Shown piece after piece: positions 8,464-58,967 of a stretch of 64,000 bases of DNA; the stretch's first letter is position 1, and each line of letters starts with the position of its first letter. A program made the position numbers and the translations under genes. The stretch is from assembly GCA_963422395.1 (NCBI GenBank), contig OY729431.1, positions 1,856,001 to 1,920,000 on the forward strand, read 5' to 3'. The notes under the pieces are model-generated. The model made no database searches and had not been told where the DNA came from. It was given only the letters and a program-made list of their open reading frames with translations. This stretch comes from Vicinamibacteria bacterium. GTDB lineage: Bacteria; Acidobacteriota; Vicinamibacteria; Marinacidobacterales; Marinacidobacteraceae.

Positions 8464-10014
8464 TCAGGCGGGCACGAAGATGCCGTGGAAACCCAGCGGC
8501 AGGGGGTAGCGCAGCCGGCCCACCGCGAGCGGGCCCTCGCCGATGCGCTCGGCGTCGAAAACCGCGATCTGGGTGATCTCCCGGTCGAGGTCCAGCGCGG
8601 TGCCGAGAACCCAGCCGGCCTCCTGCGTCTCTCCTCCGGGGCGGGGCACGAAGATGTGCTCCTCGGGCAGGAAGCGGTCTCCGTAGAAGTGGGTTTCCGC
8701 TTCGCCGGTCGAAAGATCCCAGCGCGCCACCCGATCCAGCCGGCGAGGCAGAGTCCCGGAACGACGGGCCGGGGCGCTCGCCAGGCTATAGACATGGCGG
8801 TGCCGTTTGCCCACCGCGCCGGGATGCACTCGGGGAAACTCCGCCGCCCGCTCGAACAGCTGCTGCTCGACGAGGTCCCCCTCGCCGAGCGCGACCTGGG
8901 CGAGGCGGGTGGGTCCGGTCGGAGCCCGCAAGACGCCGCGCATGACCTCGCGGAAGGTCTCGGTCAGTTCGGTCGCGTCCGGTGCCACACAGTAGTCGAA
9001 CCGGATGGCATCTCCGTCTTCCCAGGCGTTGCCGAAATGGAAGGTGAAGCCCGCCGGCAACTGCCACCACCGCCGGTTCGCGAAGTCGTCCTTGCGCACC
9101 GCGAGTACGCGAGTGCCGAGCTCCGGCCGCCAGACCTGGGCGTCGAGCAAGCTGGCCTCGGGGGACAGCCTCTCGGGGTCGAATACCAGCGGCGGCAGGA
9201 CGAAGACCAGATGGTGGGCGGTAACGGCGAAGTCGTGGACCATGCCGAGCGGAGCGGCGGCGACCTTTCCAACCGCGGCCACCGCGCCCGCCGCATCGAT
9301 TCGGTAGAGCACCAGCAGGCCCCGGAGGAAGTCGTAGCCGAACGCCCAGAGCGTGCCGTCGGGCTCGACCTTCGGATGCGCGGTGAAGGGCGCGCCGATC
9401 AGGTCGTTCCGCCAAACCTTCGGACCCAGGGTTTCCAGGGACTCGGGATCGAGGCGATACGGTGAGCCGGCCTCCCACAGCGCCAGCAGTTCACCCGCAT
9501 GGTGCAGGAGGCTGATGTTCGCGGGGTTCATCGCATCCGGGCCGGTCAGCGGCCGGCCGTCGGCCAGGGGAGTACCGAATCCCGGCCACAGCATTCGTCC
9601 GGCGTCCTGTTCCGCCTGCCGCTTGGCGGTGGCGACGAACCGGCCCCGATGGCGAATCCGGCCGCCGCCCATGGTGAATGCCTGGACCATGCCGTCGCCG
9701 TCGAACCAGTGGTGGTACCGCCGGCCGCCGACCTCATGACCCGCCGGGCCGTTCCGGTAGAAGACGCCGGCGAGTTCTTCCGGCCAACGCCCTTCTACGG
9801 CCAGGTCCTCGTCCCCGAGACTCTCGGCCGCGATCCCCTGCCAGCCGAGCAGGGCGGGATTCGCGGCCCGGGCGGCGTCGAAGTCCTGTTTCCAGCGATC
9901 TCCTCGGGAGAGGCGCCGGGCTCCGGCAGGAAGCGCCCAAAGGGCGCCCGGCAATCCCATCGCACCGATCGCGGCAGCCGCGAGGAACTCTCTCCTCTGC
10001 TTCGGTGCGCTCAT
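8464..10014 (-). CDS. Carotenoid oxygenase (RPE65/lignostilbene dioxygenase) family protein, Tat-exported
   Basis: RREFL Tat signal, YRNGP, HWFDGDGM, FTAHPK, MVHDF, FHFGNA, EFPR, GFHG (four Fe-binding His). Confidence 0.92.
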   Translation of the reverse strand: MSAPKQRREFLAAAAIGAMGLPGALWALPAGARRLSRGDRWKQDFDAARAANPALLGWQGIAAESLGDEDLAVEGRWPEELAGVFYRNGPAGHEVGGRRYHHWFDGDGMVQAFTMGGGRIRHRGRFVATAKRQAEQDAGRMLWPGFGTPLADGRPLTGPDAMNPANISLLHHAGELLALWEAGSPYRLDPESLETLGPKVWRNDLIGAPFTAHPKVEPDGTLWAFGYDFLRGLLVLYRIDAAGAVAAVGKVAAAPLGMVHDFAVTAHHLVFVLPPLVFDPERLSPEASLLDAQVWRPELGTRVLAVRKDDFANRRWWQLPAGFTFHFGNAWEDGDAIRFDYCVAPDATELTETFREVMRGVLRAPTGPTRLAQVALGEGDLVEQQLFERAAEFPRVHPGAVGKRHRHVYSLASAPARRSGTLPRRLDRVARWDLSTGEAETHFYGDRFLPEEHIFVPRPGGETQEAGWVLGTALDLDREITQIAVFDAERIGEGPLAVGRLRYPLPLGFHGIFVPA

Positions 10015-10478
10015 CGTACCGATCCTCCCGAGCGATAGATCAGTTCGGCGTCGGTCGAGACCGTCTCGCCGGCGGCGGACACCTCGACCGCCGCCTGCTC
10101 GAAATCCGGCGGCCCGAACCGCCCATCGGCACTGCGGCTGAAGCCGAAGCCCTCGGTGGGGAAGTCGTGGAAGTCGGTGTCCAGCTCATCGTTGCCGTTC
10201 TCGTCGTGGAAGACCGCGACCGCGTAGCGGCCCGCCGGCAGGTCGGTGAAGACGAACCGGAGCACCCCGGGGGCGGCCCTCCTCCAATGCGCGGCCACCG
10301 CAGCCTCGGCATCGGGGAAGTCGTCCGCGCCGGCCTGGTGGTGGAGAGCCGCCATCACTCTCCCGGAATCGTGCGCGACCGAACGCACGGTGACCTCCAG
10401 GTCATCGCCGAATCCGGGCGGCGCTGCCGCCAAGATCGCCAGGGCGGCGGAAAAGAACGATGTCGTGATCTTTGGCAT
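10011..10478 (-). CDS. DUF2141 domain protein, secreted
   Basis: Signal peptide; GRYAVAVFHDENGN..LD..P.EGFGFS..GPPDF signature. Confidence 0.88.
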   Translation of the reverse strand: MPKITTSFFSAALAILAAAPPGFGDDLEVTVRSVAHDSGRVMAALHHQAGADDFPDAEAAVAAHWRRAAPGVLRFVFTDLPAGRYAVAVFHDENGNDELDTDFHDFPTEGFGFSRSADGRFGPPDFEQAAVEVSAAGETVSTDAELIYRSGGSVR

Positions 10479-10530: not shown

Positions 10531-11733
10531 TCAGCGCGGAAAAGAGAAGCCGATATCCACCGAGAACAGCACGAGCGTCGGATCTATCGTCGAACTCCAG
10601 GTGGTTTCCACGAGGGTCTTCGGATCCGAAACGAGGGTGCCCAAGTCGAAAAGGATCGTCATGTCCGTGGTGAGGGGCGGGCCCCAGACGACATCCACCC
10701 GGGGGCGAATCAGGAACCGGCCCCTGCGGAACCCGAGACTCAGGGAGCCGGTATGCACGAGATGGCTCCGATCGGCTTCGAACACGAACTCCGCCACCGT
10801 GATCGGGGCCCCCTGGGCCGCCAGCTCCGCCTCCAGGTCGGAGATCAGGGCGCCCGACTGCAGATCGTCGGTCAGGTCGTCGGTGGCCCGAATCCATCCC
10901 GTGCCGAAGCCGATTGCGAGCTCGACGGCCCCGTCCCGGAAGCGAAAGGTGCGCAGCGCCGAGGCCAGCACGAGGTCGGCGCGGGAAGAAACCGAGCTCT
11001 GAACCGCCCCCATCGATACCCCGAGAGAGGCGGTTTCCGGGGAATCCTGGAGGAGCTCCGACGGGGTGAGATCGGGACTTCGGAGCACGAAGTAGCTGCC
11101 CTCGAAGCCCCAATTCCCATAGAGCAGCCGTGTCCCCGCGCCCCCGCCGAACTCCCGGCTCCAGCGGGAATCCGAGACGGAATCCGTGTCCAGCTCGGAA
11201 CCGGCTCGCGCGCTGATGGAGTCGGTGGCGGACACCTGGAGCAGGGACAGTCCGCCGCGCCCGAAGACTTCAGCGCGGAAGCGGGGCGGCGGGATCATCT
11301 TGGCAGCGGTCGAGATCGTCTCGCCGCCGGTCGGTATCTCGACGGCCGCCTGCTCGAAATCCGGGGGGCCGAACAGGCCCTTCGCGCTGCGGCTGAAACC
11401 GTAGCCCTCGATCGGAACACCGAAAAAGTTGGTGTCCAGCACCCCGTTGCCGTTCTCGTCGTGGAAGACCGCGACCGCGTAGCGGCCCGCCGGCAGGTCG
11501 GGAAAGAGGAAGCGGAGCACTCCGGGAGCGGCCTTCATCCACTGCGCGGCCACCGCACCCTCGGCATCGGGGAATTGCTCCGCACCGGCCTCGCGATGGA
11601 GGGCCGCCATGACCCTTCCGGAATCGTGCGCGGCCAAACGCACGGTGACCTCCAGGTCATCGCCGAATCCGGGATGCGCTGCCGCCAAGACCGCCAGGGC
11701 GGCGGAAAAGAACGATGTCGTGATCTTTGGCAT
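10531..11733 (-). CDS. DUF2141 domain fused to an unknown C-terminal domain (possibly beta-barrel)
   Basis: First ~145 aa are near-identical to 10011-10478. The remaining ~250 aa has alternating beta-strand patterns and ends VDIGFSFPR. Confidence 0.75.
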   Translation of the reverse strand: MPKITTSFFSAALAVLAAAHPGFGDDLEVTVRLAAHDSGRVMAALHREAGAEQFPDAEGAVAAQWMKAAPGVLRFLFPDLPAGRYAVAVFHDENGNGVLDTNFFGVPIEGYGFSRSAKGLFGPPDFEQAAVEIPTGGETISTAAKMIPPPRFRAEVFGRGGLSLLQVSATDSISARAGSELDTDSVSDSRWSREFGGGAGTRLLYGNWGFEGSYFVLRSPDLTPSELLQDSPETASLGVSMGAVQSSVSSRADLVLASALRTFRFRDGAVELAIGFGTGWIRATDDLTDDLQSGALISDLEAELAAQGAPITVAEFVFEADRSHLVHTGSLSLGFRRGRFLIRPRVDVVWGPPLTTDMTILFDLGTLVSDPKTLVETTWSSTIDPTLVLFSVDIGFSFPR

Positions 11734-25168: not shown

Positions 25169-26803
25169 ATGAGCCAGGGAATCCAGGCCGTTCCCCGCCC
25201 CGCCAACGAGCCGGTGCTCGAGTACCTGCCGAAGAGTCCGGAACGCGCCGCGCTCCAGGCGGAATTGGAACGGCAGTCCGCGGAAGTCGTCGATATCCCG
25301 ATCATCGTCGGCGGCCGGGAGATCCGTACCGGAAAGATCGCCGAGGTCCGCTGCCCGCACGACCACGGCAAGGTGCTCGCTCGCTACCACGAGGCGGGCC
25401 CCGAGATCGTGGAACAGGCGGTCTCCGCCGCTGCCGCCGCGTGGCACAGCTGGTCGGAGCTCGACACCCGAGCGCGCGCGAGCCTCTATCTGCGGATCGC
25501 CGATCTGCTCGTCGGCCCGCATCGGGCGCGGTTGAACGCGGCCACCATGCTCGGCCAGTCGAAGACCTGCCACCAGGCCGAGATCGATGCGGCGTGCGAG
25601 TTCGCGGACATGCTCCGCTTCAACGCCTATTTCCTCGACCAGCTCGTGCGGCAGCAGCCTGCCGGCGATGCGGACCCCGGCATCTGGAACTACTTCGAGT
25701 ACCGGGCGCTCGAAGGCTTCATCTTCGCGGTGAGCCCGTTCAACTTCACTGCTATCGGAGGCAACCTGCCGACCGCCCCCGCGATCATGGGGAACACCGT
25801 CGTCTGGAAACCCGCCGAAACGCAGATGCTCTCGGCGTACTACCTGATGCAGCTCTACCGTGAGGCCGGGCTTCCCGACGGCATCGTGAACATGGTCCCC
25901 GGGCACGGGCCGACCATCGGAGCGCCGGCGCTCGCCCAGGAGACGCTCGCCGGCGTCCACTTCACCGGGTCCACCGCGACCTTCCAGCACCTCTGGAAGA
26001 CGGTGGGCGAGAACATCGCGAACTACAGCTCCTATCCCCGGATCGTGGGCGAGACCGGCGGCAAGAACTTCGTGGTGGCGCACGAAAGCGCCGATCTCGA
26101 GGCGCTGGTGGCCGGGCTGATCCGCGGCGCCTACGAGTACCAGGGGCAGAAGTGCTCTGCGGCCTCCCGTGCCTATCTGCCGGAGAGTCTGAAAGACGAG
26201 TTCCTCGAACGGTTCCGCGCCGAGGCGGAGACGGTGACGGTGGGAGACCCCGCGGACTTCTCCAACTTCATGGGAGCGGTCATCGACGAACGCGCCTTCG
26301 AGAAGGTGTCGGGCTACCTCGACCTGGCGCGGACCGACTCCGCTTGCGAAGTCGTCTCCGGCGGAATCGCCGACCGGACGCGCGGCTGGTTCGTCGAGCC
26401 CACCCTGGTGGTGAGCGGCGACCCGCAGCACCGGCTGATGACCGAGGAGATCTTCGGGCCGGTACTCACCGTCTTCTTCTACCCCGACGGCCAGTACGCC
26501 GAGACTCTCGACCTCTGCCGGAACACTTCGCCCTACGGCCTCACCGGCGCCATCTTCGCGAACGACCGGCTCGCGGCCGAGCAGGCGTACCGCGCGCTCC
26601 GCCACGCCGCCGGCAACTTCTACATCAACGACAAGCCCACCGGCGCGGTGATCGGACAGCAGCCCTTCGGCGGCGGCCGCGCTTCCGGCACGAACGACAA
26701 GACCGGCGCCGGCTCACACCTCCTGCGCTGGACCAGCATCCGCACCGTGAAGGAGAACTTCGCGCCGGCGAAGGACTACCGCTACCCGTTCCTCTCCGCC
26801 TAG
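25169..26803 (+). CDS. pruA: L-glutamate gamma-semialdehyde (P5C) dehydrogenase
   Basis: PANEPVL.Y, SPFNFTAIG, GETGGKNF, YQGQKCSA, NDKPTGAV. Confidence 0.96.
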   Translation: MSQGIQAVPRPANEPVLEYLPKSPERAALQAELERQSAEVVDIPIIVGGREIRTGKIAEVRCPHDHGKVLARYHEAGPEIVEQAVSAAAAAWHSWSELDTRARASLYLRIADLLVGPHRARLNAATMLGQSKTCHQAEIDAACEFADMLRFNAYFLDQLVRQQPAGDADPGIWNYFEYRALEGFIFAVSPFNFTAIGGNLPTAPAIMGNTVVWKPAETQMLSAYYLMQLYREAGLPDGIVNMVPGHGPTIGAPALAQETLAGVHFTGSTATFQHLWKTVGENIANYSSYPRIVGETGGKNFVVAHESADLEALVAGLIRGAYEYQGQKCSAASRAYLPESLKDEFLERFRAEAETVTVGDPADFSNFMGAVIDERAFEKVSGYLDLARTDSACEVVSGGIADRTRGWFVEPTLVVSGDPQHRLMTEEIFGPVLTVFFYPDGQYAETLDLCRNTSPYGLTGAIFANDRLAAEQAYRALRHAAGNFYINDKPTGAVIGQQPFGGGRASGTNDKTGAGSHLLRWTSIRTVKENFAPAKDYRYPFLSA

Positions 26804-26812
26804 CAGCCTGTG
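26801..26812. repeat. Remnant left end of the TIR-element family, abutting an IS481 fragment
   Basis: TAGCAGCCTGTG begins at the pruA stop and matches the element left end. Confidence 0.5.
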
Positions 26813-27018
26813 TGGCGCGGTGTCCGGGCCGCCGGAAGCGCCCGAGTTTCTCGATGTCGAGGTGGAGGAGGCCTCCGGAATCTGGATAGACATAGCGGTT
26901 GGGGGGCGGGGGCGGTTCGAGCTGGGAGAGGCGGTGGACCCCGGCGCGCTGGGCGATGCGCCCCACGGTACTGGGGGAGATGCCGAGCTGCTGGCTGATG
27001 TCGTGGTAGGTGCGGTCA
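26813..27018 (-). pseudogene. IS481-family transposase internal fragment
   Basis: Translates as TYHDISQQLGISPSTVGRIAQRAGVHRLSQLEPP..NRYVYPDSGGLLHLDIEKLGRFRRPGHR, matching the IS481 HTH and first catalytic Asp region. Confidence 0.82.
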
Positions 27019-27185
27019 CATACCCCCTTTCACGAATTGGTGACTCAGAAACCGAACTGCTGCCGGGGCAGCGAGTTCGGATTCCCGGCGCGCAGCGCCG
27101 GGCGCTTCGGGAGCGGGGCGTCCTCCCTCCTCCCCCGAGAACGCCCGACGCCATCCTGACGCCCCGCTCCCCGGAGCGCTCGGTC
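27017..27185. repeat. Repeat family B, copy 1 (~170 bp non-coding)
   Basis: Colinear with 43532-43700 (ACCCCCTTTCACGAATTGGT...GTTCGGATTCCCGGCGCG...CCTCCTCCCCC...ACGCCCGACGCCATCC). Confidence 0.85.
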
Positions 27186-30845: not shown

Positions 30846-31322
30846 TCAGTCGTCCCGGCAACAGCTCCGACAGACGCCGTAGAGCTGGTGTCGATGCCAG
30901 ACCAACTGGTAGCCGTAGGCAGCAGCGATCTCCTCCTGACGCTCCTCGACCTCGGGCGAGAGGAACTCGTCGATCCGCCCGCAACGGACGCAGATCAGGT
31001 GATCGTGGTGGGCGCGGGAAAGCGCCGGCTCGAAACGGGTGAGCCCGTCCTTCAGAAAGATCGAGGAGGCGATCCGGGCCTCGCAGAAGAGCCGCAGTGC
31101 GCGGTACACCGTGGTGCGGCCGATCGCGGGGTCCGCTCCCCGCACTTCGGCGTGCACATCGTCGGCGGAGACATGCCCCCCCATCCCGAGGAACCGCTCG
31201 AGGATCAGGTCCCGCTGGCGAGACTTCTTGAGGCCCCGCTCATGCGCGAACTCCCGCAGCCGGTGGAAAGCCTCTTCGCGCATCGAGTCCGCGCTGGGCA
31301 GCGCGGGAACGGAAGTGCTCAT
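30846..31322 (-). CDS. Fur family transcriptional regulator
   Basis: TTVYRAL, HHDHLICVRC, CRSC. Confidence 0.92.
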   Translation of the reverse strand: MSTSVPALPSADSMREEAFHRLREFAHERGLKKSRQRDLILERFLGMGGHVSADDVHAEVRGADPAIGRTTVYRALRLFCEARIASSIFLKDGLTRFEPALSRAHHDHLICVRCGRIDEFLSPEVEERQEEIAAAYGYQLVWHRHQLYGVCRSCCRDD

Positions 31323-31504: not shown

Positions 31505-31690
31505 TCAGCGTTCTTCGAAATTCCGCTTCGCTCCCAACGCGAGCAGAATGTCTGCAGTGGAGCCCCATGCCAAGTCGAGAGGAGTCGCCCCCTCGGGGGC
31601 TGCGTTGAAGCGTGGATTCCCCTTGTACTCGACCGGGACCTCGACCGGGGCGTTCAAATCCGCGCCCGCTTCCACCATTACCTCCAGGAT
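31505..31690 (-). pseudogene. Out-of-frame duplicate C-terminal ankyrin cassette
   Basis: Encodes ILEVMVEAGADLNAPVEVPVEYKGNPRFNAAPEGATPLDLAWGSTADILLALGAKRNFEER*. Tandem with 31695-31862 at a 179-bp period. Confidence 0.8.
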
Positions 31691-32262
31691 TTTTCGAAAT
31701 TCCGCTTCGCTCCCAACGCGAGCAGAATGTCTTCTTCGTAGAACCCTGCCAAGTCGAGAGGAGTCGCCCCCTCGGGTATACGGTTGCGAAGGTCCCCCCC
31801 CTTGTACTCGACCGGGTACTCGACCGGGGCGTTCAAATCCGCGCCCAGTTCCACCATTACCTTGAACATAGACGCTAACGACTCCTGCGAGCAGGGTGTC
31901 GAGAGAGCCGAGTTCGTGTCTCTAATCTGAAATCTCTCAGCGGGTGGTGTGACAACAGCTACCGCTGCGGCATGAAGCGGCGTCATGCCTAAGTTATTCC
32001 GGGCGTTCATGTCGGCCCCGGCCGCGGCGAGCAGTTCGATCGGTCTGGGATGACAGAGGTGTAGGCCTACGATATGCAGAGCGGTCTCACCACTCTCGTT
32101 CCGCGCATTCGGGTCCGCCAATCCACTCGAGAAACATTCAGCGATGTGGTCCATAGCATCGACCACCGCGAAATTCCTCAGGGCCGGCCATCCCGGGCAT
32201 CCTTTCGTCGCACCCGCCTCGGTGAGCAATTCGATCACCTCCGGGATGGGTTCAATACTATT

Positions 32263-33472
32263 GGACCCTCTGATTTATTGATTTCGTTTGGGGTATTCTG
32301 CTTTGTATCGTCTGAGGAATGGCGGTGGGGGTTGATATGCGTCAGATGAGCTTTGCGGAAGCGGGATTCGACAGGTTTCGGAAGAAGACGAGGCGGCGTC
32401 GGTTTTTGGAAGAGATGGACCGGGTGGTGCCGTGGGATGCGTTGTGCGCGGCGATCGCGCCGGTGTATCCGAAGCGGGGGCGTGGGCGACCGCCGGTGGA
32501 GCTGGAACGGATGCTGCGGATCTACTTCTTGCAGCAGTGGTTCGACCTGTCGGACCCCGGGGTGGAGGAGGCGCTCTACGAGTCGGATTCGATGCGGCGC
32601 TTCGTGGGGATCGACCTGGGGCGGGAGAGGGCGCCGGATGAGACGCGGTGTGCAAGTTCCGGCATCTGCTGGAGCGTCACGACCTGACGGAGGCGATGTT
32701 CGAGCAGGTCCAGGAGTATCTGGCGGAGCACGGGGTGCGGGTGCGGAACGGGACGATCGTGGACGCGACGATCCTGACGGCGCCGAGTTCGAGGAAGAAC
32801 CGGGCGAAGGCGCGGGCGGAGATGGGCTCGACACGGAAGGGGCAGCAGTGGTATTTCGGGATGAAGGCGCACATCGGGATGGACTCGCAGACGAAGCAGA
32901 TCCATTCGGTGGTGGCGACGGCGGCGAATGTGCACGACTCGCAGGTGTTGGCGGAGCTGCTCCACGGAGGGGAGACGCGGGTGTGGGGGGACAAGGCGTA
33001 TTGCGGGCAACGGAAGGTGATTCGAGAAGTAGCGCCGCGGGCACAGGACTTCACACAGCGGAAGGCGTTTCGGAATCAGCCTCTCACCGAGCAGCAGCGG
33101 GCGGCGAACGTCAGGAAGGCGCGGGTTCGGGCTCGGGTGGAGCATCCGTTTCAGGTGATGAAGCGGGTGTTCGGGTTTCGGGAGGTGCGGTACCGAGGCA
33201 TCGAGAAGAACTGGCATCGGGTGGTGGCGACTTGCGCGCTGGTGAACCTGTTCCAAGCCAGGAGAGTGGTGATACGGGCGCAAGAGCGCTGCGCCTGCTG
33301 AGAAGACTCGGGGAGAGAGCCGAGGGGGCTGCCCGGAGCCTGACTCTCTTGCCCGGCGCGGGGGAATACTGCCGATGAAGGTCGGCACTCGAGGTTTCCT
33401 CACGAATCGTAGAAGCCGAGCTCCATCCGATATCGAGAATCCGACTAAAAAATCATCTTGATCAGACCTTCC
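32263..33472 (+). mobile_element. IS5-family insertion sequence, 1210 bp, 4-bp TATT target duplication
   Basis: Imperfect IRs GGACCCTCTGAT and (reverse complement) GGAAGGTCTGAT. TATT at 32259-32262 and 33473-33476. Confidence 0.92.
32337..33301 (+). pseudogene. IS5 transposase with a -1 frameshift near 32646
   Basis: MRQMSF..TRRRRFL.EM, GRPP..LERMLRIYFLQQWF, PDET, then frame change to VCKFRHLLE, IVDAT, FGMKAHIG, GDKAY, RVEHPF. Confidence 0.9.
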
Positions 33473-35204
33473 TATTGTTGTAAAACTGCGCATCGTTGAG
33501 CACGGTCGCATTTCCCTTGTTCCGGATTCGCACATCCGCGCCCCCCCGGAGCAGCGCCTCGACCACTTCCGGTTCCGGAGCATACATATCCCCCACGACT
33601 GCCTTATGAAGAGGGGTCCCTCCTGAGACCCCCCCGATCGCATTCGGATCTAGCTCCATAGTCAAGAGCCTCTCGATCACGGCCGGATTCGGGTTGACTG
33701 CCGCCATGTGGAGCGCGTTCCATCCGGTCATCGTCGTACCCGCACCCGCCTGCGCGTGGACGTCCGCACCCGCGGCGAGGAGCGTCTCGAGCACAGCCAG
33801 GTTCTGGTTGTACATCGCCGCATAATGGAGAGCCGTTAAAGCTCTGCTGCTAGGGGCATCTACATCGGCACCCGCCGCGAGGAGCGCCTCGACCGTCGAC
33901 GGCTCGGCATTCCCCGCCGCCATATGGAGCGGGTTCAGTCCATCCTCATCCTGGATACTCAGATCGGCGCCGCCCGCGACGAGCGCCTCGATCACTTCCG
34001 GGGGTCTTGAGTATTGGGTTGCGAAGTGCAGCGGGGTTTCGTCAGGCTCATCGATACCATGATTCTGGGCGTCCGGATCCGCACCGCCCCTGATCAGCGT
34101 TTCGATCATTCTCGTGGTTTCGATCACTCCTCGCTTCTTGGAGGATTCGATCGTGCTATGGAGCGGAGTTTCTCCGAAGCCGTTCCGCCCGTTTGGATTC
34201 GCGCCCGCTGCGATCAGCGCTTCGAGAACCGCGGGATCCTGGGAGACACCAGCTGCGCCGTGCAGCAGGGTATCGTGGTAATTGTCTCGTACGTTCGGGT
34301 CCAGCCCCGCGGCCAGACACGCCGCCACGATTTCTATCGGGCTGCTCTTGAAAAAGCGAATCTGATCGGATACATCGCATTCCAGATCTTGCGATTCTCC
34401 GGAACGTTCGGAGCTCTCGGCCGTGCTTCCGGCCGCAGGAGCAGCGGCGTCCGGATCAGCGGCGCCCGGGCGCGCCGAGGACTTCTGAGTTTCGACCGGG
34501 TTCTCGGCTTCCCCACCGCCTTCGGAGCTCGACTCCCCGCCCCTCCTTCCGAACGACCTCAGCACGCCACCCACGCGAGACGCCGTCCGGGAAGCGCGCC
34601 GGGCCACTCTCGCCGTCGCTTCGACCGTTTCCGCACTCTCTCTCCCGCCGGGGATCGCCTCGAACACTGCCGAGTTCGCCGCGGCCTCCGCGACGGCCTG
34701 CGGGGTCAGGCCCTCTCCGTTCAGCGCGGTCAGATCCGCACCCGCCGCGACCAGCGACTCGATCACCGCCGAGTCACTGGATTCCGCCGCGAAATGCAGC
34801 GCCGTCCAACCGGCCTCGGACCGGAGATTCGGGTCGGCGCCCGCCTCGATCAGCGCGTCGATCACCTCCAGCGAGGCTTCCGCCCTGGCCGCGAGGTGGA
34901 GCGGGGTCAGGCCCCCCTCGGCGCGAGCGTTCGGATCTGCACCCGCCGCAAGACACGCCTCCACTTCCTCCACCTCGGCACTCTCGAAAAAGCCCGGCGT
35001 GTTCCAGCCCCGGCAATCGGTTTCCGTCCGGTCGGAGAGCAGCCGCTTGGCGAGCCGTCCGAACTGGGCGGCGGCCTCCGCGGGAGCGGCCCACGAAAAG
35101 ACCACCGAACTCAGGACCGCCGCAGCGCCGAACCCGCGCATTCTCTTCCTCTTCGTCATGTCTTCCCTCTCTTTCGACTCCCGGCCCCCAGCCGGAAGAC
35201 GACT

Positions 35205-35370: not shown

Positions 35371-36561
35371 TTGCGCATTCTCTACCTCGATCTCTCCGCC
35401 GGCATTTCGGGAGACATGCTGCTGGGCGCGCTGGTGGACATCGGGGTTCCGCGCGAAACCCTCGAGGAAACGGTTGCCGCGCTGGGCTGCCCGGTATCGC
35501 TGACGTTCGAAGAGAGTGCCCGCGGCGGACTTCGCGGGACTCGAGCCCGCGTCGAAGCACCGGACGACCGGGGGCACCGCCGCCTCGCGGATTTCCTGGC
35601 CGCTCTGGACCGGAGCCGGCTCTCCGGCGATGTCCCGGAGCGAGCGGCCCAACTGCTCCGCCGGATCTTCGAAGCCGAAGCCCGGATCCACGGCATGACC
35701 CCCGAGTCGGTCCACCTTCACGAACTCGGCTCCCTCGACACCCTGGTGGACATCGTGGGAGCGGTCGCCGGAGTCGCCTGCCTCGACCCCGATCAGGTCG
35801 TGGGTTCCCCCGTCAACCTCGGCAGCGGCTCGGTCGAGGCCGAGCACGGCACCCTCGAAATCCCCGCCCCGGCCACCGGCATGCTGCTGCGCGGCGTGCC
35901 GACATTCTCCGACGGGTCCGGTTTCGAGCGCACCACTCCGACCGGAGCAGTTCTGACCGGGCTCGCCTGCTCCTTCGGCGGCTGGCCCCCGATGACCGCC
36001 GAACGGATCGGATACGGCCTCGGTTCCGCCGATCCGCAGGAGGGGCGTCCGAACGCGCTGCGCGTGGTGCTCGGGTCCGCCCCTGACCTCGCTGACCACG
36101 CCGGCCGGGTGGTCATCGTCGTCGAGACGACGCTCGACGACCTGCAGCCCGAGCTCGCGCCGCACCTGATCGAGAGCCTGCTCGCCGCGGGCGCGCGGGA
36201 TGCCTTCTTCACCCCGGTGCAGATGAAAAAGGGTCGGCCCGGACTGTTGTTGACCGCCCTCGCCGATCCCGCTCGCCGGGAGGCGGTCGTGGCGGCCCTG
36301 TTCTCGGAGAGCACGACACTCGGTGTCCGGATCACGGAGGCGGAGCGGGAGACCCTGGAGCGCCGCGTCGTCTCCGCCCGTACGCCGTGGGGGGAAGTCG
36401 GGCTCAAGATCGGAATGCGGGGTGGAAACGTGGTCAACCGAGCTCCGGAATTCGAGGATTGCCGGCGTCTCGCGGCGTCCGCCGGCGTTCCCCTGAAGGA
36501 GATCTACCGGCACGCGCTCGGCGCGCCTCTCCCCGAGCTCTTCGGCCGGGACCGAAAGTGA
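35371..36561 (+). CDS. larC: Nickel-pincer cofactor biosynthesis protein LarC
   Basis: YLD..AGISGDMLLGAL, VHLHELG, PAPAT, TPTGA, MKKGRPG, STTLGVR, PEFEDC. Confidence 0.93.
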   Translation: MRILYLDLSAGISGDMLLGALVDIGVPRETLEETVAALGCPVSLTFEESARGGLRGTRARVEAPDDRGHRRLADFLAALDRSRLSGDVPERAAQLLRRIFEAEARIHGMTPESVHLHELGSLDTLVDIVGAVAGVACLDPDQVVGSPVNLGSGSVEAEHGTLEIPAPATGMLLRGVPTFSDGSGFERTTPTGAVLTGLACSFGGWPPMTAERIGYGLGSADPQEGRPNALRVVLGSAPDLADHAGRVVIVVETTLDDLQPELAPHLIESLLAAGARDAFFTPVQMKKGRPGLLLTALADPARREAVVAALFSESTTLGVRITEAERETLERRVVSARTPWGEVGLKIGMRGGNVVNRAPEFEDCRRLAASAGVPLKEIYRHALGAPLPELFGRDRK

Positions 36562-38413: not shown

Positions 38414-38877
38414 ACCTCCGATTTCCGCCCTATCGCCACCGGCCGGGCCAAACACCGCACCCGGAACGGGATCCGGGAGGGCATCGACTGCTGGAACAGC
38501 TGCCCCGAGAGCTGCTGCCGGCGGCGCCGGTTCCCTTGGCGGCGCTTCTCGACGCGGCGCTCTTCGACTACGGCGAGCGCCTGCTGCGGGCCGGGTACGC
38601 CTGGGAAGCCCACGCGGTCTGGGAAGAGCTCTGGCGCGCCGCGAAAGCTTCGGCGGAAGGGAACCAGACGCCCGAGAGCGAAGCGCTGCGCGCCTTCATC
38701 CAGCTCGCCGCCGCCGCGCTCAAGCACGAGCTCGGCAACGCTGCCGGAAGCCGGAAACTCCTCGCGGCGGCGGCGCGCTCTCTCCATCGCGCCGATCGCG
38801 GCGGCCGGGCAGCAGAGAGGATCGAAAGACGCTTCCGGGAACTTTCGACAGCGTGCGGGCTAGCAGCCCATGGATGA
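38410..38877 (+). CDS. DUF309 domain protein (start uncertain; stop lies inside a repeat element)
   Basis: PPY..RPGQTPHP, YAWEAHAVWEELW, IQLAAA. Confidence 0.75.
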   Translation: MNLRFPPYRHRPGQTPHPERDPGGHRLLEQLPRELLPAAPVPLAALLDAALFDYGERLLRAGYAWEAHAVWEELWRAAKASAEGNQTPESEALRAFIQLAAAALKHELGNAAGSRKLLAAAARSLHRADRGGRAAERIERRFRELSTACGLAAHG

Positions 38878-39076
38878 AGTGGCGCGAGCACCGAGACCGG
38901 GCCAGTTCTCCCGGTGGGGGGGCGGCGCCTGGCTGACAAGGCGCGATTCGGGAGGCATACCGGGCGTATTCCGACTGATTTGCAACGAAGAGCGAAGCGG
39001 TTCAGCCAGGGACCCCACCGGGAGGACTGGGCATCGCCGGTCGACTGCCGTGTGACTTCGTCCAGGGGCGGGCTAG
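38860..39076. mobile_element. TIR element (MITE-like) copy A1, module alpha
   Basis: CTAG-CAGCCCATGGATGAAGT...ACTTCGTCCAGGGGCGGG-CTAG. Internal IR CCAGTTCTCCCGGTGGGG/CCCCACCGGGAGGACTGG. Confidence 0.85.
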
Positions 39077-40339: not shown

Positions 40340-40446
40340 CGCGGCGGCCGAGAGAGCTGTTCGTTCGGCCGCCAACGAGCGGCTGAGGGTCGCGGAGACG
40401 ATGAGGGACTGCGGAAGGTAGAAGCAGAGTAGAATTCCCCCGGTTC

Positions 40447-40811
40447 GAGTCGTTCAGACGGTCGCCGGCTCGTTCGAGCGGGAGGAAAGTCCGAACTCCG
40501 AAAGGCAGTGCGCTGGATAACTCCCAGTCCGGGTGACCGGAAGGAAAGTGCCACAGAAAACAAACCGCCTCTTCCTTCGGGAGCGGCAAGGGTGAAAAGG
40601 TGCGGTAAGAGCGCACCGCCCGGGCAGTGATGTTCGGGGCACGGTAAACCCCGCATGGAGCAAGACCAAATAGAGAAGCGTCCGAGGGCCGCCTGTCCGA
40701 GCTTCCGGGTAGGTCGCTCGATCCGTCGGGCAACCGGCGGGCTAGATGCATGACCGTCGCCGCGTTCCGGGAAACCGGCTCGCGGAACAGAATTCGGCTT
40801 ACGAGCGGCTC
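40447..40811 (+). ncRNA. rnpB: RNase P RNA (bacterial class A)
   Basis: GAGGAAAGTCC, AGTGCCACAGAAA, GGTAAACCCC..GAGCAAG, AACAGAATTCGGCTTA; paired P1 ends. Confidence 0.97.
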
Positions 40812-41020
40812 GGACCGATCGTGCGGAACGATGGGCCTCGCCGGGCCGGCGGCGGATCGTGGCCCGGCCCCCCGGCCGGCGGCCGCCGGCCGGAATACCC
40901 ATCAGGAGTACCCGGCGGGGATCCCTTGTCTGGAGTGCTTTCTGGAAAGCTGTCGGGAACGATGACGGAACCGGCAACGGACCGGCGTGCGCCGCGGCCG
41001 CGGCCCGGAGCCGCCGGCCC

Positions 41021-41987: not shown

Positions 41988-43379
41988 ATGGAAGGTCCCG
42001 CCGGTTCTGCGCCCATGCGCGAAAGCTCCGGGGATCCCGACCCCGGTTCCCGAGCCGGCGCGGCGCGCCGGCCGACAGCGGATCCATCGGCTCGGGGATT
42101 CACTTCCGCCGCGGCGGTCGCCGGCGCGCTCGCCTCGGGGATCGTGCTGTTCGGCGCCTCGGTTTCGGGCTCCTGGCACGGGCCCGTCCCCAAGGCTCCC
42201 GAACCGCCCGCGGTGAGGACGAGCGAGGCGCCCATCTACGGTCTCTTCCTGGTCCCCGACAGCTTCCTCCGAGGCGACTCGCTCTCGAATGTGCTGGAGC
42301 GCAACGGGTTCTCCGCGCGGGAGATCGCCGACATCACCGAAGCCCTCACCCCGGTCAGCGAGGTGAGGCGGTTGCGGGCAGGGCAATCGGTCTGGCTGCA
42401 TCGGAACGAGCGCGGTGTTCCCTCGCGCATCGAATTGCCGATCGAAGACTTCCGCAGGGTCTCGGTCGTCCGCTCTGCAAACGGCTGGACCGCTCGGGAA
42501 ACCGAAGGGGTCCGTTTCAAGCACCGCGAGACGGTACAGGGCATCCTGACCACGAGCCTCGACGAGGCGGTCCATCGGGCCGGCGAGCGCGCCGACCTCG
42601 CCATGTTGATCGCGCAAGTGCTCGAACACGATGTGGACTTCCATCGCGACCCGCGGCGGGGGGACACCTTCTCCCTCGTCGTGGACAAGCTCTACGACGC
42701 CGAAGGCGTCTGGAAGGGATACGGGGATCTCCACGCAGTGCGCTATCGCAACGCCGGCCGCGCGATCACCGCCTTCCGTTTCGAACTGCCGAGCGGGGCA
42801 TCGGGCTACTACGACCACGAAGGGAACTCCGTCCAGCGCTCCTTCCTGACGAGCCCGGTGGCCTACACCCGCATTTCGGGCGTCTTCACGAGCCGCCGAT
42901 TCCACCCGGTACATCGCGTTTACCGCCCTCACTACGGAGTGGACTACGCGGCGCCGCGGGGAACTCCGGTGCGGGCCACCGCCGACGGGGTGGTGGCAGA
43001 CGCCGGCCGTCGCGGCCCCAACGGAAACATGGTCACGCTGCGCCATGCCGGCGGCTATGTGACGAAATACCTCCACCTGCAGCGCATCGCTCCCGAAGCC
43101 CGAACCGGGCACTCGGTGCGGCAGCGGGAGATCATCGGATATGTCGGCTCCACCGGGGTTTCCACCGGGCCGCATCTCGACTACCGCATGTCCCGCTACG
43201 GGAGGCCGCTGAACCCGCGCACTCACATCCTGCCGCCAGGCCCACCGATCTCACCGGAGTACCGGGCGGCGTTCGATGCTTGGCGGAACGGCATGCTGGC
43301 TGCCCTCGACAGCCCGGCACCCCGACCGCGCCCGTCCACCGCACTCCGGACTCTGGACGCGAGCGGGGGCGGCTCTTAG
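41988..43379 (+). CDS. M23 family peptidoglycan endopeptidase (MepM-like; start uncertain)
   Basis: HYGVDYAAP.GTPV, YLHL, GSTG.STGPHLDY. Confidence 0.9.
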   Translation: MEGPAGSAPMRESSGDPDPGSRAGAARRPTADPSARGFTSAAAVAGALASGIVLFGASVSGSWHGPVPKAPEPPAVRTSEAPIYGLFLVPDSFLRGDSLSNVLERNGFSAREIADITEALTPVSEVRRLRAGQSVWLHRNERGVPSRIELPIEDFRRVSVVRSANGWTARETEGVRFKHRETVQGILTTSLDEAVHRAGERADLAMLIAQVLEHDVDFHRDPRRGDTFSLVVDKLYDAEGVWKGYGDLHAVRYRNAGRAITAFRFELPSGASGYYDHEGNSVQRSFLTSPVAYTRISGVFTSRRFHPVHRVYRPHYGVDYAAPRGTPVRATADGVVADAGRRGPNGNMVTLRHAGGYVTKYLHLQRIAPEARTGHSVRQREIIGYVGSTGVSTGPHLDYRMSRYGRPLNPRTHILPPGPPISPEYRAAFDAWRNGMLAALDSPAPRPRPSTALRTLDASGGGS

Positions 43380-43459
43380 CAGTCCGTGGATAAAGTCGCG
43401 CGAGCACCGAGAGCGGGCCCGTTCTCCCGGAAAGAGCCGCGGCTTTCACCCATAGCCTG
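43377..43459. mobile_element. Short, internally deleted TIR element copy A2
   Basis: TAG (M23 stop)-CAGTCCGTGGATAAAGTCGCGCGAGCACCGAGA..GTTCTCCCGG, with a degenerate right end CTTTCACCCATAGCCTG. Confidence 0.65.
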
Positions 43460-43507: not shown

Positions 43508-43700
43508 GGGGGTATGTGTGAAAGGGGGTCCACCCCCTTTCACGAATTGGTACCTCGGAATCCGAACTCGCTGCCCCCGGCAGCAGTTCGGATTCCCGGC
43601 GCGGAGCGCCGGGCGCTTCGAGAGCGGGGCATCTTCCCTCCTCCCCCAAAAACGCCCGACGCCATCCCTGACGCCCCGCCCTCGGAGCGCACCGCCCGAG
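43508..43700. repeat. Repeat family B, copy 2, with a 12-bp perfect inverted repeat at 43518-43543
   Basis: Homologous to 27017-27185. GTGAAAGGGGGT-CC-ACCCCCTTTCAC. Confidence 0.82.
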
Positions 43701-49433: not shown

Positions 49434-49548
49434 CAGCTGCGACCTACGGTAGGTCGTTCATGCGAACCCGATCCCCGAAGCTCATCGGCATCCACCACCC
49501 CTCAGCAGAAGGAGCAACCTCGCTATCCGCCGCTTCGTCCACAGACTG
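49434..49548. mobile_element. TIR element copy A3: module gamma plus right TIR
   Basis: GCTGCGACCTACGGTAGGTCGTTCA..CTCAGCAGAAGGAG matches 55079-55158; ends CTTCGTCCACAGACTG. Confidence 0.75.
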
Positions 49549-49552
49549 CTGA

Positions 49553-49747
49553 CAGCCTGTGGATGAAGTGGCGTGAGCGCCGAGAGTGGCCAGTTCTCCC
49601 GGTGGGGGCGGCGCCCGGCGGGCAAAGCGCGTGAGGGAGGAATCCCGGGAGTATTTCGACCGAAACAACGATGAACCCCGGGGAACTGGGCGTTCAGCCG
49701 GGGCCCCCACCGGGAGAACTGGGCCGTGTGACTTCGTCCACCGGCTG
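49553..49747. mobile_element. TIR element copy A4, module alpha
   Basis: TGA-CAGCCTGTGGATGAAGT...ACTTCGTCCACCGGCTG-TCA; the TCA is the ProDH stop. Confidence 0.85.
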
Positions 49748-50650
49748 TCAACCCCGGGAGAAGACCGCCCGGATCACATGATGGGCGAGCTCCGGGTTCT
49801 TGCGGAGACGGCGGAGCGAGTAAGGCAACCACTCCGGCCCGAACGGAACAGCGACCCGGACGCGGTGCCCGGCGCGCCGGACGATCTCCCGCAGGCGCGG
49901 GCGCACACCGTGGAGCATCTGGAACTCGTAGCGCTCCGGCGGCACTCCGAGTTCTTCCACCATCGTGGATGCCTTGAAGATCAGCCACTCGTCGTGGGTG
50001 GCGATGCCGACCGAACAACCCGCCGTCAGCAGCTCGCGAAGGAGTAAGCAGTAGTTCTCCCGGATAAGCTGCGGCTCGGTGTAGGCGATCTCGTGGGACT
50101 CCAGATAGACACCCTTGCAGAGCCGCACATAGAACCCGGGGGCGGCCAGCTTCCGCACATCGGCGAGGCTTCGCCGCATCCGCGCCTGGATCACCACTCC
50201 GAAGTTCAGGAAATCGGGATGGAGTTCCCGGTAGAGATCGAGCGTCGCGTCGATCCGCGGACTGTCCTCCATGTCCATCCGCAGGAAAGTGCCGCCGCGG
50301 CTCGATGCGTATTCCAGCAGCGAACGGACCTGGTCTCGGCAGAAGCCGCGGTCGAGAAGCAGCCCGAGCTGGGTCAGCTTCACATGGACATACGCAGCAA
50401 GCTCGCGGCGGGCGACCGTATCCAGGACCTCTCGGTACATTGCGGTGGCGGCTTCGGCCTCCGCCCGGCTCTCGACGAATTCGCCGAGCTGACTGATGGC
50501 GACCAGGTATCCCTGCCGGTTCAGCATCTCGGCCTCCCGGGCGGCCTCCTCCACCGTCTCGCCGGCGATGTATGGCCGGGCGAAGGGACGGACCGCAGCC
50601 TTGGGCAGGAACTGCAGGCTGGCCGCGATCGTCCGATCGAAGAGACCCAA
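49748..50650 (-). CDS. Proline dehydrogenase (monofunctional)
   Basis: YIAGET, VKLTQLGL, RMDMED, VRLCKGVY.E, IATHD, EFQMLHG, LRRL. Confidence 0.92.
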   Translation of the reverse strand: MGLFDRTIAASLQFLPKAAVRPFARPYIAGETVEEAAREAEMLNRQGYLVAISQLGEFVESRAEAEAATAMYREVLDTVARRELAAYVHVKLTQLGLLLDRGFCRDQVRSLLEYASSRGGTFLRMDMEDSPRIDATLDLYRELHPDFLNFGVVIQARMRRSLADVRKLAAPGFYVRLCKGVYLESHEIAYTEPQLIRENYCLLLRELLTAGCSVGIATHDEWLIFKASTMVEELGVPPERYEFQMLHGVRPRLREIVRRAGHRVRVAVPFGPEWLPYSLRRLRKNPELAHHVIRAVFSRG

Positions 50651-50668
50651 ACCGGCCAACGCTCTCAG

Positions 50669-50814
50669 CAGTCTGTGGATGAAGTGGCGCGAGCCCCGAG
50701 AGCGGCCCATGCGGGGCCGGAAAGGCCCCGCGAACACGCCGAAGAGCGAGGGGTTCCCAGCCGAGTGTCCTCGACCGGGAGTCCCTCGCTGCTCGGCACT
50801 TCGTCCACAGGCTG
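50669..50814. mobile_element. TIR element copy A5, module beta only
   Basis: CAGTCTGTGGATGAAGT...ACTTCGTCCACAGGCTG. Interior matches 58840-58925. Confidence 0.85.
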
Positions 50815-50821
50815 TTAGATG

Positions 50822-51703
50822 TTAGAGCTCGAAGTGGCGGAGGATGCGGTCGAGCGCCTCTTCGGTCGGGGAGTCGAGCGCTGCCGCCGGAGCCCGGATT
50901 CCGGGATGGGAGATCGCACCCCGGCGCCGGAGCATCTCCTTGCGGATCGCCATGCCGATCCCCTCCTGGAACTCGAAGCGCATCATCGGGGCATAACGGT
51001 AGAAGACTTCGGCGGCGCCGTCCCGGTCGCCGGCATCCCAGCGCGACACCACCGAGACGAGCAGCTTCGGATAGGCGAAACCGGTCATGGCGCCGGTAGC
51101 GCCGGCGAGGAGCTCCTCGAGGAGATAGGTCCCGCCGAGACCGCCGAAGATGCCGATCTCGATATCCGGGGTCCGCTCCCGGATCCGCGCCGCCTTGTAA
51201 GGCGTCGGGGCATCTTCCAGCTTGATCGTCCGCGCCGCCGGGATCTCCCGGCACAGGCGGGCGAGGAGGTCCGGTTCCATGGGAAAGCCGGAGATCGGCG
51301 GAAAGTCCTGGATCACGATGGGGATCGAGATCGTGTCGGCGATCGCGGCGAAGTGGCGGAAGACCGCCTCCGCGTTGCACCTCGGGGCACGCGGCGGAGA
51401 CACCATCACCCCAGCGGCGCCCGCCTGCTCGGCGGCGCGGCAACGCTCGAGGCAGATGTCGAGGCCCGGACCGGAAGCGCCGACGATCACCGGAACCCGG
51501 CCCGCCGCATGGCTCATGCTGGCGTCGAGGATCTCGTCGCGTTCGCGGTCGGAGATCCGGGACACCTCGCTGGTCACGCCGAGGGCGGTGAACCCGGATA
51601 CGCCGTCCTCGAGGAAGAGCGCGATCACTCGGCCGAGGCTCGCGGAATCGAAGCGGCCGTCCGCAGCGAAGGGGGTCGGAAGAACCGAGTAGACACCGTT
51701 CAT
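50822..51703 (-). CDS. Dihydrodipicolinate synthase (DapA)-family lyase
   Basis: PTPF, LGVTSE, IKLED Schiff-base Lys, GAMTG. Confidence 0.9.
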   Translation of the reverse strand: MNGVYSVLPTPFAADGRFDSASLGRVIALFLEDGVSGFTALGVTSEVSRISDRERDEILDASMSHAAGRVPVIVGASGPGLDICLERCRAAEQAGAAGVMVSPPRAPRCNAEAVFRHFAAIADTISIPIVIQDFPPISGFPMEPDLLARLCREIPAARTIKLEDAPTPYKAARIRERTPDIEIGIFGGLGGTYLLEELLAGATGAMTGFAYPKLLVSVVSRWDAGDRDGAAEVFYRYAPMMRFEFQEGIGMAIRKEMLRRRGAISHPGIRAPAAALDSPTEEALDRILRHFEL

Positions 51704-53812: not shown

Positions 53813-55096
53813 ATGGAACGGATCCGACTCGACTACGACGAACAGGGGCTGGATCTCCGGATCCCGGACCGGGCCGCCGGCCGCTTCGAAGTCATCCGGC
53901 CCCGCTTCCCGCCGCCGCTCGCGGACGAAGCCGGGGCGCTCCTCCGGGCCCTCCGGGAACCGGTCGCCGGCCCGCCGCTGCACGAGCGGGTGCCCCGGGG
54001 GGCCTCCGTCGCGATCTCGGTCTGCGATCCGACCCGTGCCCAGCCCCGGATCCCCATGCTCCGCGCCCTGCTCGAAGAGCTTCCAACCCCGCCGGAGCGG
54101 GTCACTCTGCTCGTCGCCACCGGGACCCATCGCCCGGCGACCGCGCGCGAGCTGGAAACGATGTTCGGCAGCGAGCTGCTCTCGGCCTGCGAGGTCGAAA
54201 ACCACGACTGCCGGGACGGCTCGGCGCTGGTCGAACTCGGGCGGACGGCGACCGGAGTCCCGGTGGCGCTGAACCGCCGCTTCGTCGAAGCCGATGTTCG
54301 CATCACCACCGGCTTCGTGGAGCCGCACTTCTTCGCCGGGTTTTCCGGGGGGCCGAAGATGATCGCCCCCGGACTCGCCGGCCTGGAAACGATCCTGATG
54401 CTCCACGACGGGCACCGGATCGGCCACCCCCGAGCGGTGTTCGGCATCACCGAGGGAAACCCGGTCCACGACGATGTGCGCGAGATTGCGCGGCGATTCC
54501 CGGCGGACTTCGGCCTCGATGTGCTCCTCGACGGAGAGAAGCGGATCACCGGAGTCTTCTCGGGCGATCTCGCCGAGGAACACGCTGCCGCCTGCCGGCG
54601 GTCGCGCGCCGAGGCGATGCGCCCGGTCGCCGGACCTTTCGAGGTGGTGGTGACCACGAATGCCGGCCATCCGCTCGACCTGAACCTCTACCAGGCGGTC
54701 AAGGGGATGGCGGCAGCGGCCAGGATCGTGCGCGAGAGCGGGACGATCCTCTGCGCCGCCGCCTGCCGCGAAGGGATCCCCGAAGGGGGCGCGTACGCCC
54801 GGGCGCTCCGCGCCGGTTCCTCGATCGAGGAAGTGCGGGAGGCGCTCGCCGCCTCCCCGGTGCGCCGGCCCGACGATTGGCAGGTCCAGATCCAGTGCCG
54901 CATCCTGGAACGGGCGCGGGTCGGGCTCTTTTCGAGGCTCCCCGACGAGACCGTCCGGGCGGTGCATCTGGATCCGGTGGCCGATCTCGACGCCGCCTGC
55001 CGGGAAGCGCTCGAGACTGCGGGGCCGCAGGCGCGGCTCGCGGTGCTGCCGCACGGACCGGTCACGATCCCTCATCTAGCTGTGACCTTGCGGTAG
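53813..55096 (+). CDS. larA: Nickel-pincer-dependent lactate racemase family protein
   Basis: DPTR, ATGTHR, NHD, EPHFFAGFSGGPK, LDLNLYQAVKG. Confidence 0.92.
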   Translation: MERIRLDYDEQGLDLRIPDRAAGRFEVIRPRFPPPLADEAGALLRALREPVAGPPLHERVPRGASVAISVCDPTRAQPRIPMLRALLEELPTPPERVTLLVATGTHRPATARELETMFGSELLSACEVENHDCRDGSALVELGRTATGVPVALNRRFVEADVRITTGFVEPHFFAGFSGGPKMIAPGLAGLETILMLHDGHRIGHPRAVFGITEGNPVHDDVREIARRFPADFGLDVLLDGEKRITGVFSGDLAEEHAAACRRSRAEAMRPVAGPFEVVVTTNAGHPLDLNLYQAVKGMAAAARIVRESGTILCAAACREGIPEGGAYARALRAGSSIEEVREALAASPVRRPDDWQVQIQCRILERARVGLFSRLPDETVRAVHLDPVADLDAACREALETAGPQARLAVLPHGPVTIPHLAVTLR

Positions 55097-55310
55097 GTTG
55101 TTCACACGAACCCGATGCCCGGAACTCATGGGCATCCACAACCCCTCAGCACAAGGAGGCGCCCGGCTGACGAGGCGCGATTCGGGAGGCATACCGGGAG
55201 TATTCCGACGGAATCGCAACGCCGAGCGAAGCGGTTCAGCCGGGCCCCCACCGGGAGGACTGGGCATCGCCGACCTTTGGCCGTGTGACTTCGTCCACAG
55301 GCTGCTCTAG
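55076..55310. mobile_element. TIR element copy A6: module gamma, 3' part of module alpha, right TIR; flanked by CTAG
   Basis: CTAG at 55076 and 55307. Gamma at 55079-55158, then alpha GGCGCCCGGCTGA..CCCCACCGGGAGGACTGG, then GTGTGACTTCGTCCACAGGCTG. Confidence 0.85.
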
Positions 55311-58655: not shown

Positions 58656-58957
58656 CAGTCCGTGGATGAAGTGGTGCGAGCACCGAGACCGGGCCAGTTC
58701 TCCCGGTGGGGGCGGCGCCTGGCGGACAAGGCGCGAATCGGGAGACAAACCGGCGTATTCCGACTGATTCGCAACGAAGAGCGAAGCGGTTCAGCCAGGG
58801 CCCCCACTGGGAGAACTGGGCATCGCCGGTCGCTCCGAGCGGGGCCGAATATGGCCCCGCGAGCACGCCGGAGAGTGAGGGGCTCCCGGTCGGGATCCCC
58901 GACGGGAGTCCCTCGCTACTCGGCAAATGCCGTGTGACTTTGTCCACGGGCTGCTAA
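58652..58957. mobile_element. TIR element copy A7, modules alpha + beta
   Basis: CTAG (DUF481 stop)-CAGTCCGTGGATGAAGT...ACTTTGTCCACGGGCTG-CTAA. Confidence 0.87.
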
Positions 58958-58967
58958 CTCGAAGCCG

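Follow-up and report, generated by a model that had tools for sequence, protein, structure and literature searches.

The last 1.5 ankyrin repeats encoded by an ankyrin gene with a signal-peptide-like start in this Vicinamibacteria bacterium are followed, in tandem and on the same strand, by a second version of the same segment (copy B) that matches the first (copy A) nucleotide for nucleotide outside four patches, and within those patches every changed codon changes the amino acid. We read copy B as an orphan alternative C-terminal tip, which would have been made by recombination between hypervariable alleles of the gene and which ordinary recombination could swap in, and we give this reading a probability of about one half. 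The pattern is real and statistically striking, and it is probably a variation on known recombination-based diversification. The analysis covered a window of 64,000 nt, within which the gene and its surroundings are arranged as follows:

33477..35159, minus strand: 5′ part of the ankyrin gene, 561 codons, start at 35159
32263..33472: IS5-family element of 1210 bp with imperfect terminal inverted repeats and a 4-bp target duplication
32319-32687 and 32648-33301, plus strand: IS5 transposase in two frames, matching positions 1-81 and 84-285 of profile NF033581
31678..32262, minus strand: 3′ part of the ankyrin gene, 194 codons, with the third Cys-capped module, ankyrin repeats and C-cap
30846..31322, minus strand: Fur-family regulator (profile match), downstream neighbour
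35371..36561, plus strand: larC (nickel pincer cofactor biosynthesis; profile match), divergent upstream neighbour

The open reading frame taken as the gene in the preliminary description is, by its coordinates, the 3′ part of an ankyrin gene of ~755 codons in one frame, a point which that description had missed. The 5′ part opens with a signal-peptide-like sequence (judged by eye), carries two Cys-capped modules with nine TPLH-like anchors, and runs four residues into the insertion sequence to a stop at 33462. Internal stops are absent from both halves, Pfam Ank families match both, and each of the three modules starts with a Cys-containing cap, in a form looser than the motif of the relatives described below. 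From these features the protein is predicted to be a modular ankyrin-repeat binding protein, probably secreted; the best score against the Dot/Icm ankyrin effector NCBIfam model was 99.8 bits for a cut-off of 600, reflecting generic ankyrin similarity only. The IS5 element, whose transposase has a frame break near 32645, cuts the 3′ part off from the signal peptide, and since the tip is thereby uncoupled from it the arrangement is probably a relic that is inactive here. GC content at fourfold sites drops along the gene (0.86, 0.77, 0.72; six host genes 0.85-0.92), as would fit a 3′ end that has been replaced or is changing fast. Over the whole gene the GC3 of variable and framework codons did not differ (0.69 vs 0.72), and there is thus no sign of unbiased randomisation.

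The window holds other repeated and mobile sequences. An IS481-like transposase fragment (weak, E=2e-4; 26625-27179) adjoins a 158-nt sequence that recurs at 89% identity 16.5 kb away (43532-43690). An intergenic repeat family of about 200-300 nt (38860-39076, 43376-43436, 49447-49752, 50661-50830, 55091-55309 and 58652-58958), for which an Rfam match is absent, has copies with related ends, some of them composite; our guess is that it is MITE- or REP-like.

The duplicated segment comprises the following elements, all on the minus strand:

31693..31860, minus strand: copy A, the final 1.5 ankyrin repeats in the gene's frame, running from an outer helix through a long loop and the TPLDLA helix to the capping helix
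31777..31797, minus strand: copy A loop patch GDLRNRI, beginning within an 8-G run at 31794-31801
31732..31746, minus strand: copy A post-TPL patch GFYEE
31682..31692, minus strand: 11-nt junction, like the end of copy B (7/11) and the start of copy A (5/11) by hand count
31514..31681, minus strand: copy B, the variant tip left as an orphan in a different frame, with a stop of its own at 31505
31598..31618, minus strand: copy B loop patch NPRFNAA
31553..31567, minus strand: copy B post-TPL patch WGSTA

The tandem 179-bp duplication that the preliminary description had placed at the end of the ankyrin gene was confirmed and is ungapped, with an offset of 179 bp between copy A (31860-31693, in the gene's frame) and copy B (31681-31514). 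Its hand tally was also reproduced: across 56 codons, 43 are identical in nucleotides, 13 are changed non-synonymously and none synonymously, and each of the residue swaps that it had named (L/A, Y/V, GDLRNRI/NPRFNAA, GFYEE/WGSTA) is present. The 28 mismatches in 168 nt make up two dinucleotides (L/A and Y/V), a 21-nt patch in the loop and a 15-nt patch after TPL, separated by five identical blocks of 12, 28, 19, 30 and 40 nt. Two or three bases differ in 10 of the 13 changed codons, and the copies share only 5/21 nt in the loop patch and 7/15 nt in the post-TPL patch. Upstream (5′) of the exact match lie three further non-synonymous codons (M/I, F/L, K/E). Relative to copy A, the downstream copy B is shifted out of frame by a single base, which had escaped the preliminary description; it reads as a complete tip with the consensus EAGAD and its own stop; a public protein set contains it as a 57-aa open reading frame (31505-31678), and taken alone it has no Pfam or NCBIfam match.

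The clustering of these differences is far beyond chance. When 28 mismatches were placed at random, as few as 13 codons or as many as 18 adjacent pairs were reached in 0 of 200,000 placements, and random point mutation (50,000 trials) gave a mean of 4.9 synonymous codons, with a probability of 0.004 for none. As a control of similar overall divergence we used two DUF2141 paralogues from the same window (10014-10478 and 11200-11733; 87% DNA identity), whose first 143 codons (divergence 14%) comprise 94 identical, 19 synonymous and 30 non-synonymous codons in a scattered arrangement, unlike the A/B pair (Fisher p=0.002 for residue-identical codons, and 0.006). These paralogues agree completely over some stretches of 10-18 codons, which hints at partial conversion there. 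The claim of a frozen framework in the ankyrin tip held under a count of synonymous sites, with 0 changes at 31.3 such sites outside the patches (upper 95% bound 0.09), and in this two-sequence comparison dN is far above dS. Within the patches identity is at the level of unrelated DNA (12/36, p=0.25), yet indels are absent. Since patches so divergent have kept their length, block exchange of constrained segments fits better than point mutation.

The variable residues fall where an ankyrin protein might be expected to bind. An AF2 model of the 3′ part (pLDDT 78.7, from an alignment of 43 sequences) is an ankyrin stack, for which the top Foldseek matches, and the nearest solved structures, are DARPins. 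In this model copy A supplies the final outer helix, followed by a long loop with a pLDDT of about 58 and then by the TPLDLA and capping helices. The preliminary description had put the variable codons at the loop and after TPL, and the model bears this out, with most of them in the loop or just past the first helix of the ankyrin fold: the loop, at -11 to -5 from the T of TPL, and positions +6 to +10 together account for 11 of the 13 changes. Loop and post-TPL regions are named as the ankyrin binding face in the cited portion of PMC4986451, and the variable patches are likely, going by the model, to occupy putative binding positions.

From the sequence pattern, the reading frame and the split by the insertion sequence, all of which can be read directly from the DNA, we infer each causal step of the recombinational account. 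In the first step, copies A and B would be variants of one hypervariable gene end resembling the ‘high internal conservation’ type, in which frequent recombination or conversion would keep the framework identical, whilst diversifying selection and short-tract exchange would alter the binding codons as blocks; identity of the framework might stem from recent common ancestry or from homogenising exchange. In the second, an unequal or partly illegitimate crossover would set two variants in tandem, thereby displacing one of them downstream in the manner of an rhs tip. In the third, crossing over within any one of the five identical blocks, each 12-40 nt long, would leave a single unit behind, and the gene would gain all or part of the patches of copy B by ordinary recombination with no dedicated enzyme. 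Among the findings that stand against this account, a donor pool was not found in the window or in the public sets searched, and the codons beside the patches hold no synonymous hitch-hiker, though one would be expected of ancient alleles. The sharp patch edges are not explained by it, and all inference from the A/B pair concerns a single locus.

Further copies of the framework, for which the preliminary description had proposed a search, were found neither in the window, where there is no third copy, nor in the public sets searched. Among 122 candidate homologues of the cassette protein (106-2000 aa) none reached E<=10. A comparison of the cassette with 1.84 billion representative proteins gave 13 matches, and of the eight examined one is the cassette's own open reading frame, while generic ankyrins or unrelated repeats account for the remaining seven. 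Scanning the GTDB representatives with two exact peptide patterns yielded 82 stretches and one confirmed locus, which was rejected as its 20-residue match lies in a non-ankyrin gene, which we take to be of the GxxExxY type. The cassette was unmatched in phages (tblastn) and plasmids (blastn), and a search of the ESM Atlas returned generic ankyrin and hypothetical clusters only. A close orthologue of the 5′ part was likewise absent among the best 120 of 983 matches, which show 26-43% identity, and none of the protein and GTDB searches brought up a sister strain.

More distant relatives are numerous, the modular ankyrin family with a Cys cap being large (at least 983 matches, mostly unnamed, some with other domains such as a kinase). 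We compared 166 of them, namely all 46 matches of one search and the best 120 of 983 from another, at the protein level. Their identities, taken over partial local alignments, are 26-71%, and the few top relatives that carry a name come from MAGs of Acidobacteria and Gemmatimonadota. The cap motif C..W...C[LF]..G is present in 102/166, and 34/166 contain an internal 56-aa copy at 43/56 identity or above, in several cases far above the 77% of the A/B pair. The 69 near-identical repeat pairs in these 34 proteins differ mostly at -5..-1, +4, +7 and +8 from the T of TPLH, and we therefore regard a fixed framework with variable binding positions as a habit of the family. Overlap of the A/B changes with these positions is partial, as copies A and B are invariant at -4..-1 and +4 and vary at -11..-6, -18 and -28, and the other repeats of the ankyrin gene itself are poorly conserved (best 29/56). 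Changes needing at least two base changes make up 9/13 in the A/B pair, compared with 11/33 at variable sites and 6/42 elsewhere in the closest pairs of the relatives. Among seven relatives with five or more such repeats, three have four-gamete column pairs, a signal that recurrent mutation can mimic, and four have none. Together with the protein-level scope of the comparison, these differences weigh against carrying the family explanation straight over to the A/B pair.

The explanation that survives best beside the recombinational one, though we consider it unlikely, dispenses with a cassette altogether. Copy B would once have been a second in-frame repeat, homogenised with copy A by conversion that stopped at dense mismatch, and would have left the frame through a one-base indel at the junction (real, subsequent to the IS insertion, or a sequencing error). 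The unit is indeed one base short of 60 codons, the junction contains most of a five-A run (only 3% of the 13-nt windows in the window hold a run of five or more), the three codons preceding the exact match read well as ankyrin outer helix in the frame of copy B, the nearby transposase is frameshifted too, and relatives often have near-identical repeats in frame. However, the unit consists of 1.5 repeats ending in a C-cap, and judging from its secondary structure an in-frame tandem would therefore pair two outer helices and break the ankyrin register. Chance alone gives this phase in one duplication of three, and conversion should have wiped the isolated dinucleotide mismatches.

A dedicated process that is not adenine-specific, rewriting set codons or inserting short templated pieces in ankyrin loops, with copy B as its stored or discarded product, would account for the sharp patch edges, with synonymous divergence below 0.09 beside saturated codons, and for the low share of transitions (8/28). 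It could also draw on an element just upstream of copy A, missed in the preliminary description:

31892..31918, minus strand: 27-nt larC-like piece, 26/27 identical to larC 35719-35745, sense to sense, in a different frame

This piece lies 32 nt upstream of copy A, inside the long insert between helix 1 and helix 2, and 3.8 kb from the larC original, with an extra 12/14 match after an 18-nt gap. Matches of 26/27 are expected about 1e-4 times for any 27-mer of the ankyrin gene and 1e-3 times window-wide (Markov order 3-5), and the gapped alignment scored 54.5 against a control maximum of 41.5 (198 stretches). As the piece encodes HELGSLDTL in larC, within the region matched by TIGR00299, larC is likely to be the donor. 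The sequence suggests that DNA captured from the neighbourhood went into part of the variable insert, possibly by templated insertion; it is a single event, and no link between it and the A/B patches was found. Against a dedicated process, templates for the patches are absent from the window. The two large patches, whose longest exact matches there are 9-10 nt, are not explained by local template switching, though such switching could account for Y/V, given the perfect 12-nt tandem repeat that copy A carries at that point. The 114 open reading frames scanned against Pfam (106 picked by a codon-bias filter and eight by hand) include no match to a reverse transcriptase family, and their sole transposase-type families are the IS5 pieces. 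Hairpins or unusual DNA structure were likewise rejected (z=0.02), no Rfam RNA lies near the duplication, the sole Rfam match in the window being a class A RNase P RNA at 40446-40816, and relatives showing recurrence were not found. Such a process strikes us as doubtful. The same holds, as a speculation with the odds well against it, for the broader idea that these bacteria might run a natural ‘DARPin library’, in which the binding-loop codons of secreted ankyrins would be rewritten as whole blocks by a targeted non-DGR mechanism, short pieces of neighbouring genes would be pasted in (the larC 27-mer being one caught event) and spare tips would be stored behind the gene, out of frame, for swapping.

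An assembly chimera, in which the alleles of two co-occurring strains were placed in tandem, seems to us improbable to a similar degree. In its favour, neither half of the gene was retrieved by the protein searches, although the 57-aa open reading frame is in the 50% set. Against it, the 11-nt junction is not an exact match to either flank, and a simple graph bubble would not produce such a stretch; the codon pattern would need explaining even between the alleles of two strains.

It is very unlikely that copy B is used as it stands, whether as a translationally coupled 57-aa partner or as a second tip reached by frameshifting or slippage. The stop codon of copy A overlaps the ATG of copy B (TAATG), GGAGG sits 5 nt before its second codon (GTG), the frame of copy B is open for 138 codons from 31921, and the G8 run at the start of the loop patch of copy A, which ranks among the two longest homopolymers of the window, is a possible slippage site. 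Set against this, the TAATG overlap is merely a pair of Val-Met codons that also occurs in copy A, a promoter-like site was looked for and none was found, and 57 aa amount to less than two repeats, with no signal peptide and no recognised domain.

A diversity-generating retroelement (DGR; defining features from the part of PMC6328139 cited) with a template elsewhere, of which both copies would be sibling variable regions, is barely credible and is not supported. In its favour, the duplication covers the 3′ end of the gene, 22/28 changes fall at the first or second codon position and an AAC parent would suit several of the pairs. Against it, 27 framework adenines are unchanged, five of them at synonymous third positions, the changes show no adenine specificity and six of them affect third positions, a template would require long A runs, the tally of hidden-template sites (27 invariant A, 13 with one A, 15 with no A, so that 15/28 mismatches involve no A) rejects a single-rate model at p=7e-6 with selection ignored, and the reverse transcriptase with an A-rich template that the preliminary description had proposed to seek has no counterpart among the 114 open reading frames of the window that were scanned. 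That description had already set aside a simple template/variable repeat pair, rightly so, given that A is involved in 5-8/28 mismatches with either copy as template on either strand; its reservation that the copies might be siblings of a distant template is not supported by the adenine counts. In common with DGRs as outlined in the cited text (PMC6328139), the tip combines a constant scaffold with variable codons and lies at the 3′ end of its gene; unlike them, it lacks adenine specificity, and neither template nor reverse transcriptase was found in the window.

Returning to the recombinational reading, the A/B pair would appear, by analogy with the systems covered in the cited sources, to work most like the ankyrin and WD40 repeats of fungal NLR proteins and to be arranged as a one-member vls cassette or a displaced rhs tip. 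The ANK, TPR and WD40 repeats of fungal NLRs (Podospora HNWD, Pa_3_8560) show high internal conservation, a pattern which the cited parts of PMC4986451 and PMC12222747 credit to concerted evolution together with diversifying selection. As described there, they share with the A/B pair a near-identical framework and few hypervariable codons, in their case on the inner helix and loop; they form long in-frame arrays in eukaryotic intracellular receptors, unlike the single out-of-frame bacterial tip of 1.5 repeats found here, which belongs to a gene with a signal-peptide-like start, no NOD domain and no array, and in which whole patches are replaced. Against a criterion for high internal conservation of >85% identity over at least 100 aa, copies A and B reach 43/56 (77%) and the other repeats of the gene at most 29/56.

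Tips of rhs genes are paired with immunity genes. The rhs orphan tips, in the account excerpted from PMC2935791, resemble copy B in forming an alternative 3′ end directly behind a full gene with homology that would allow an in-frame swap. Tips of that kind are unrelated to one another beyond the shared core according to the same excerpt, unlike copy B, which is homologous to copy A throughout, and the next gene here is fur, with no immunity gene.

Likeness to the Borrelia vlsE/vlsS system, so far as the cited sections of PMC11499132 describe it, lies in a silent copy adjoining an expressed gene, in variable regions between invariant ones, in a higher dN/dS in the variable regions and in out-of-frame overlapping cassette junctions. 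The non-expressed copy here does carry variable between invariant regions, its silence being judged from the frame. In those sections vls consists of many-cassette arrays set head-to-head with the expression site, with indels in the variable regions and demonstrated conversion, unlike the one head-to-tail copy without indels in our window, which is no cassette array. The ankyrin fold is shared with the eukaryotic-like ankyrin proteins of host-associated bacteria (PMC13747020, in the portion cited), with DARPins as a structural analogue, and by analogy with that account a role in host interaction is plausible; a sponge-symbiont setting for the organism would be a guess. Since the pair lacks a defining feature of each system compared, we file it under none of them. 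In the open-access titles and openings of abstracts that were searched, no orphan ankyrin tip in bacteria was described, and this argues only weakly that such a report does not exist.

The large Cys-capped ankyrin family often shows near-identical repeats and merits a survey at the DNA level. The A/B pair makes testable the origin of saturated patches beside a framework without synonymous change. If alleles confirm the recombinational reading, this would be a bacterial counterpart of the fungal NLR regime of concerted evolution plus hypervariable codons, in which an orphan tip keeps two states side by side.
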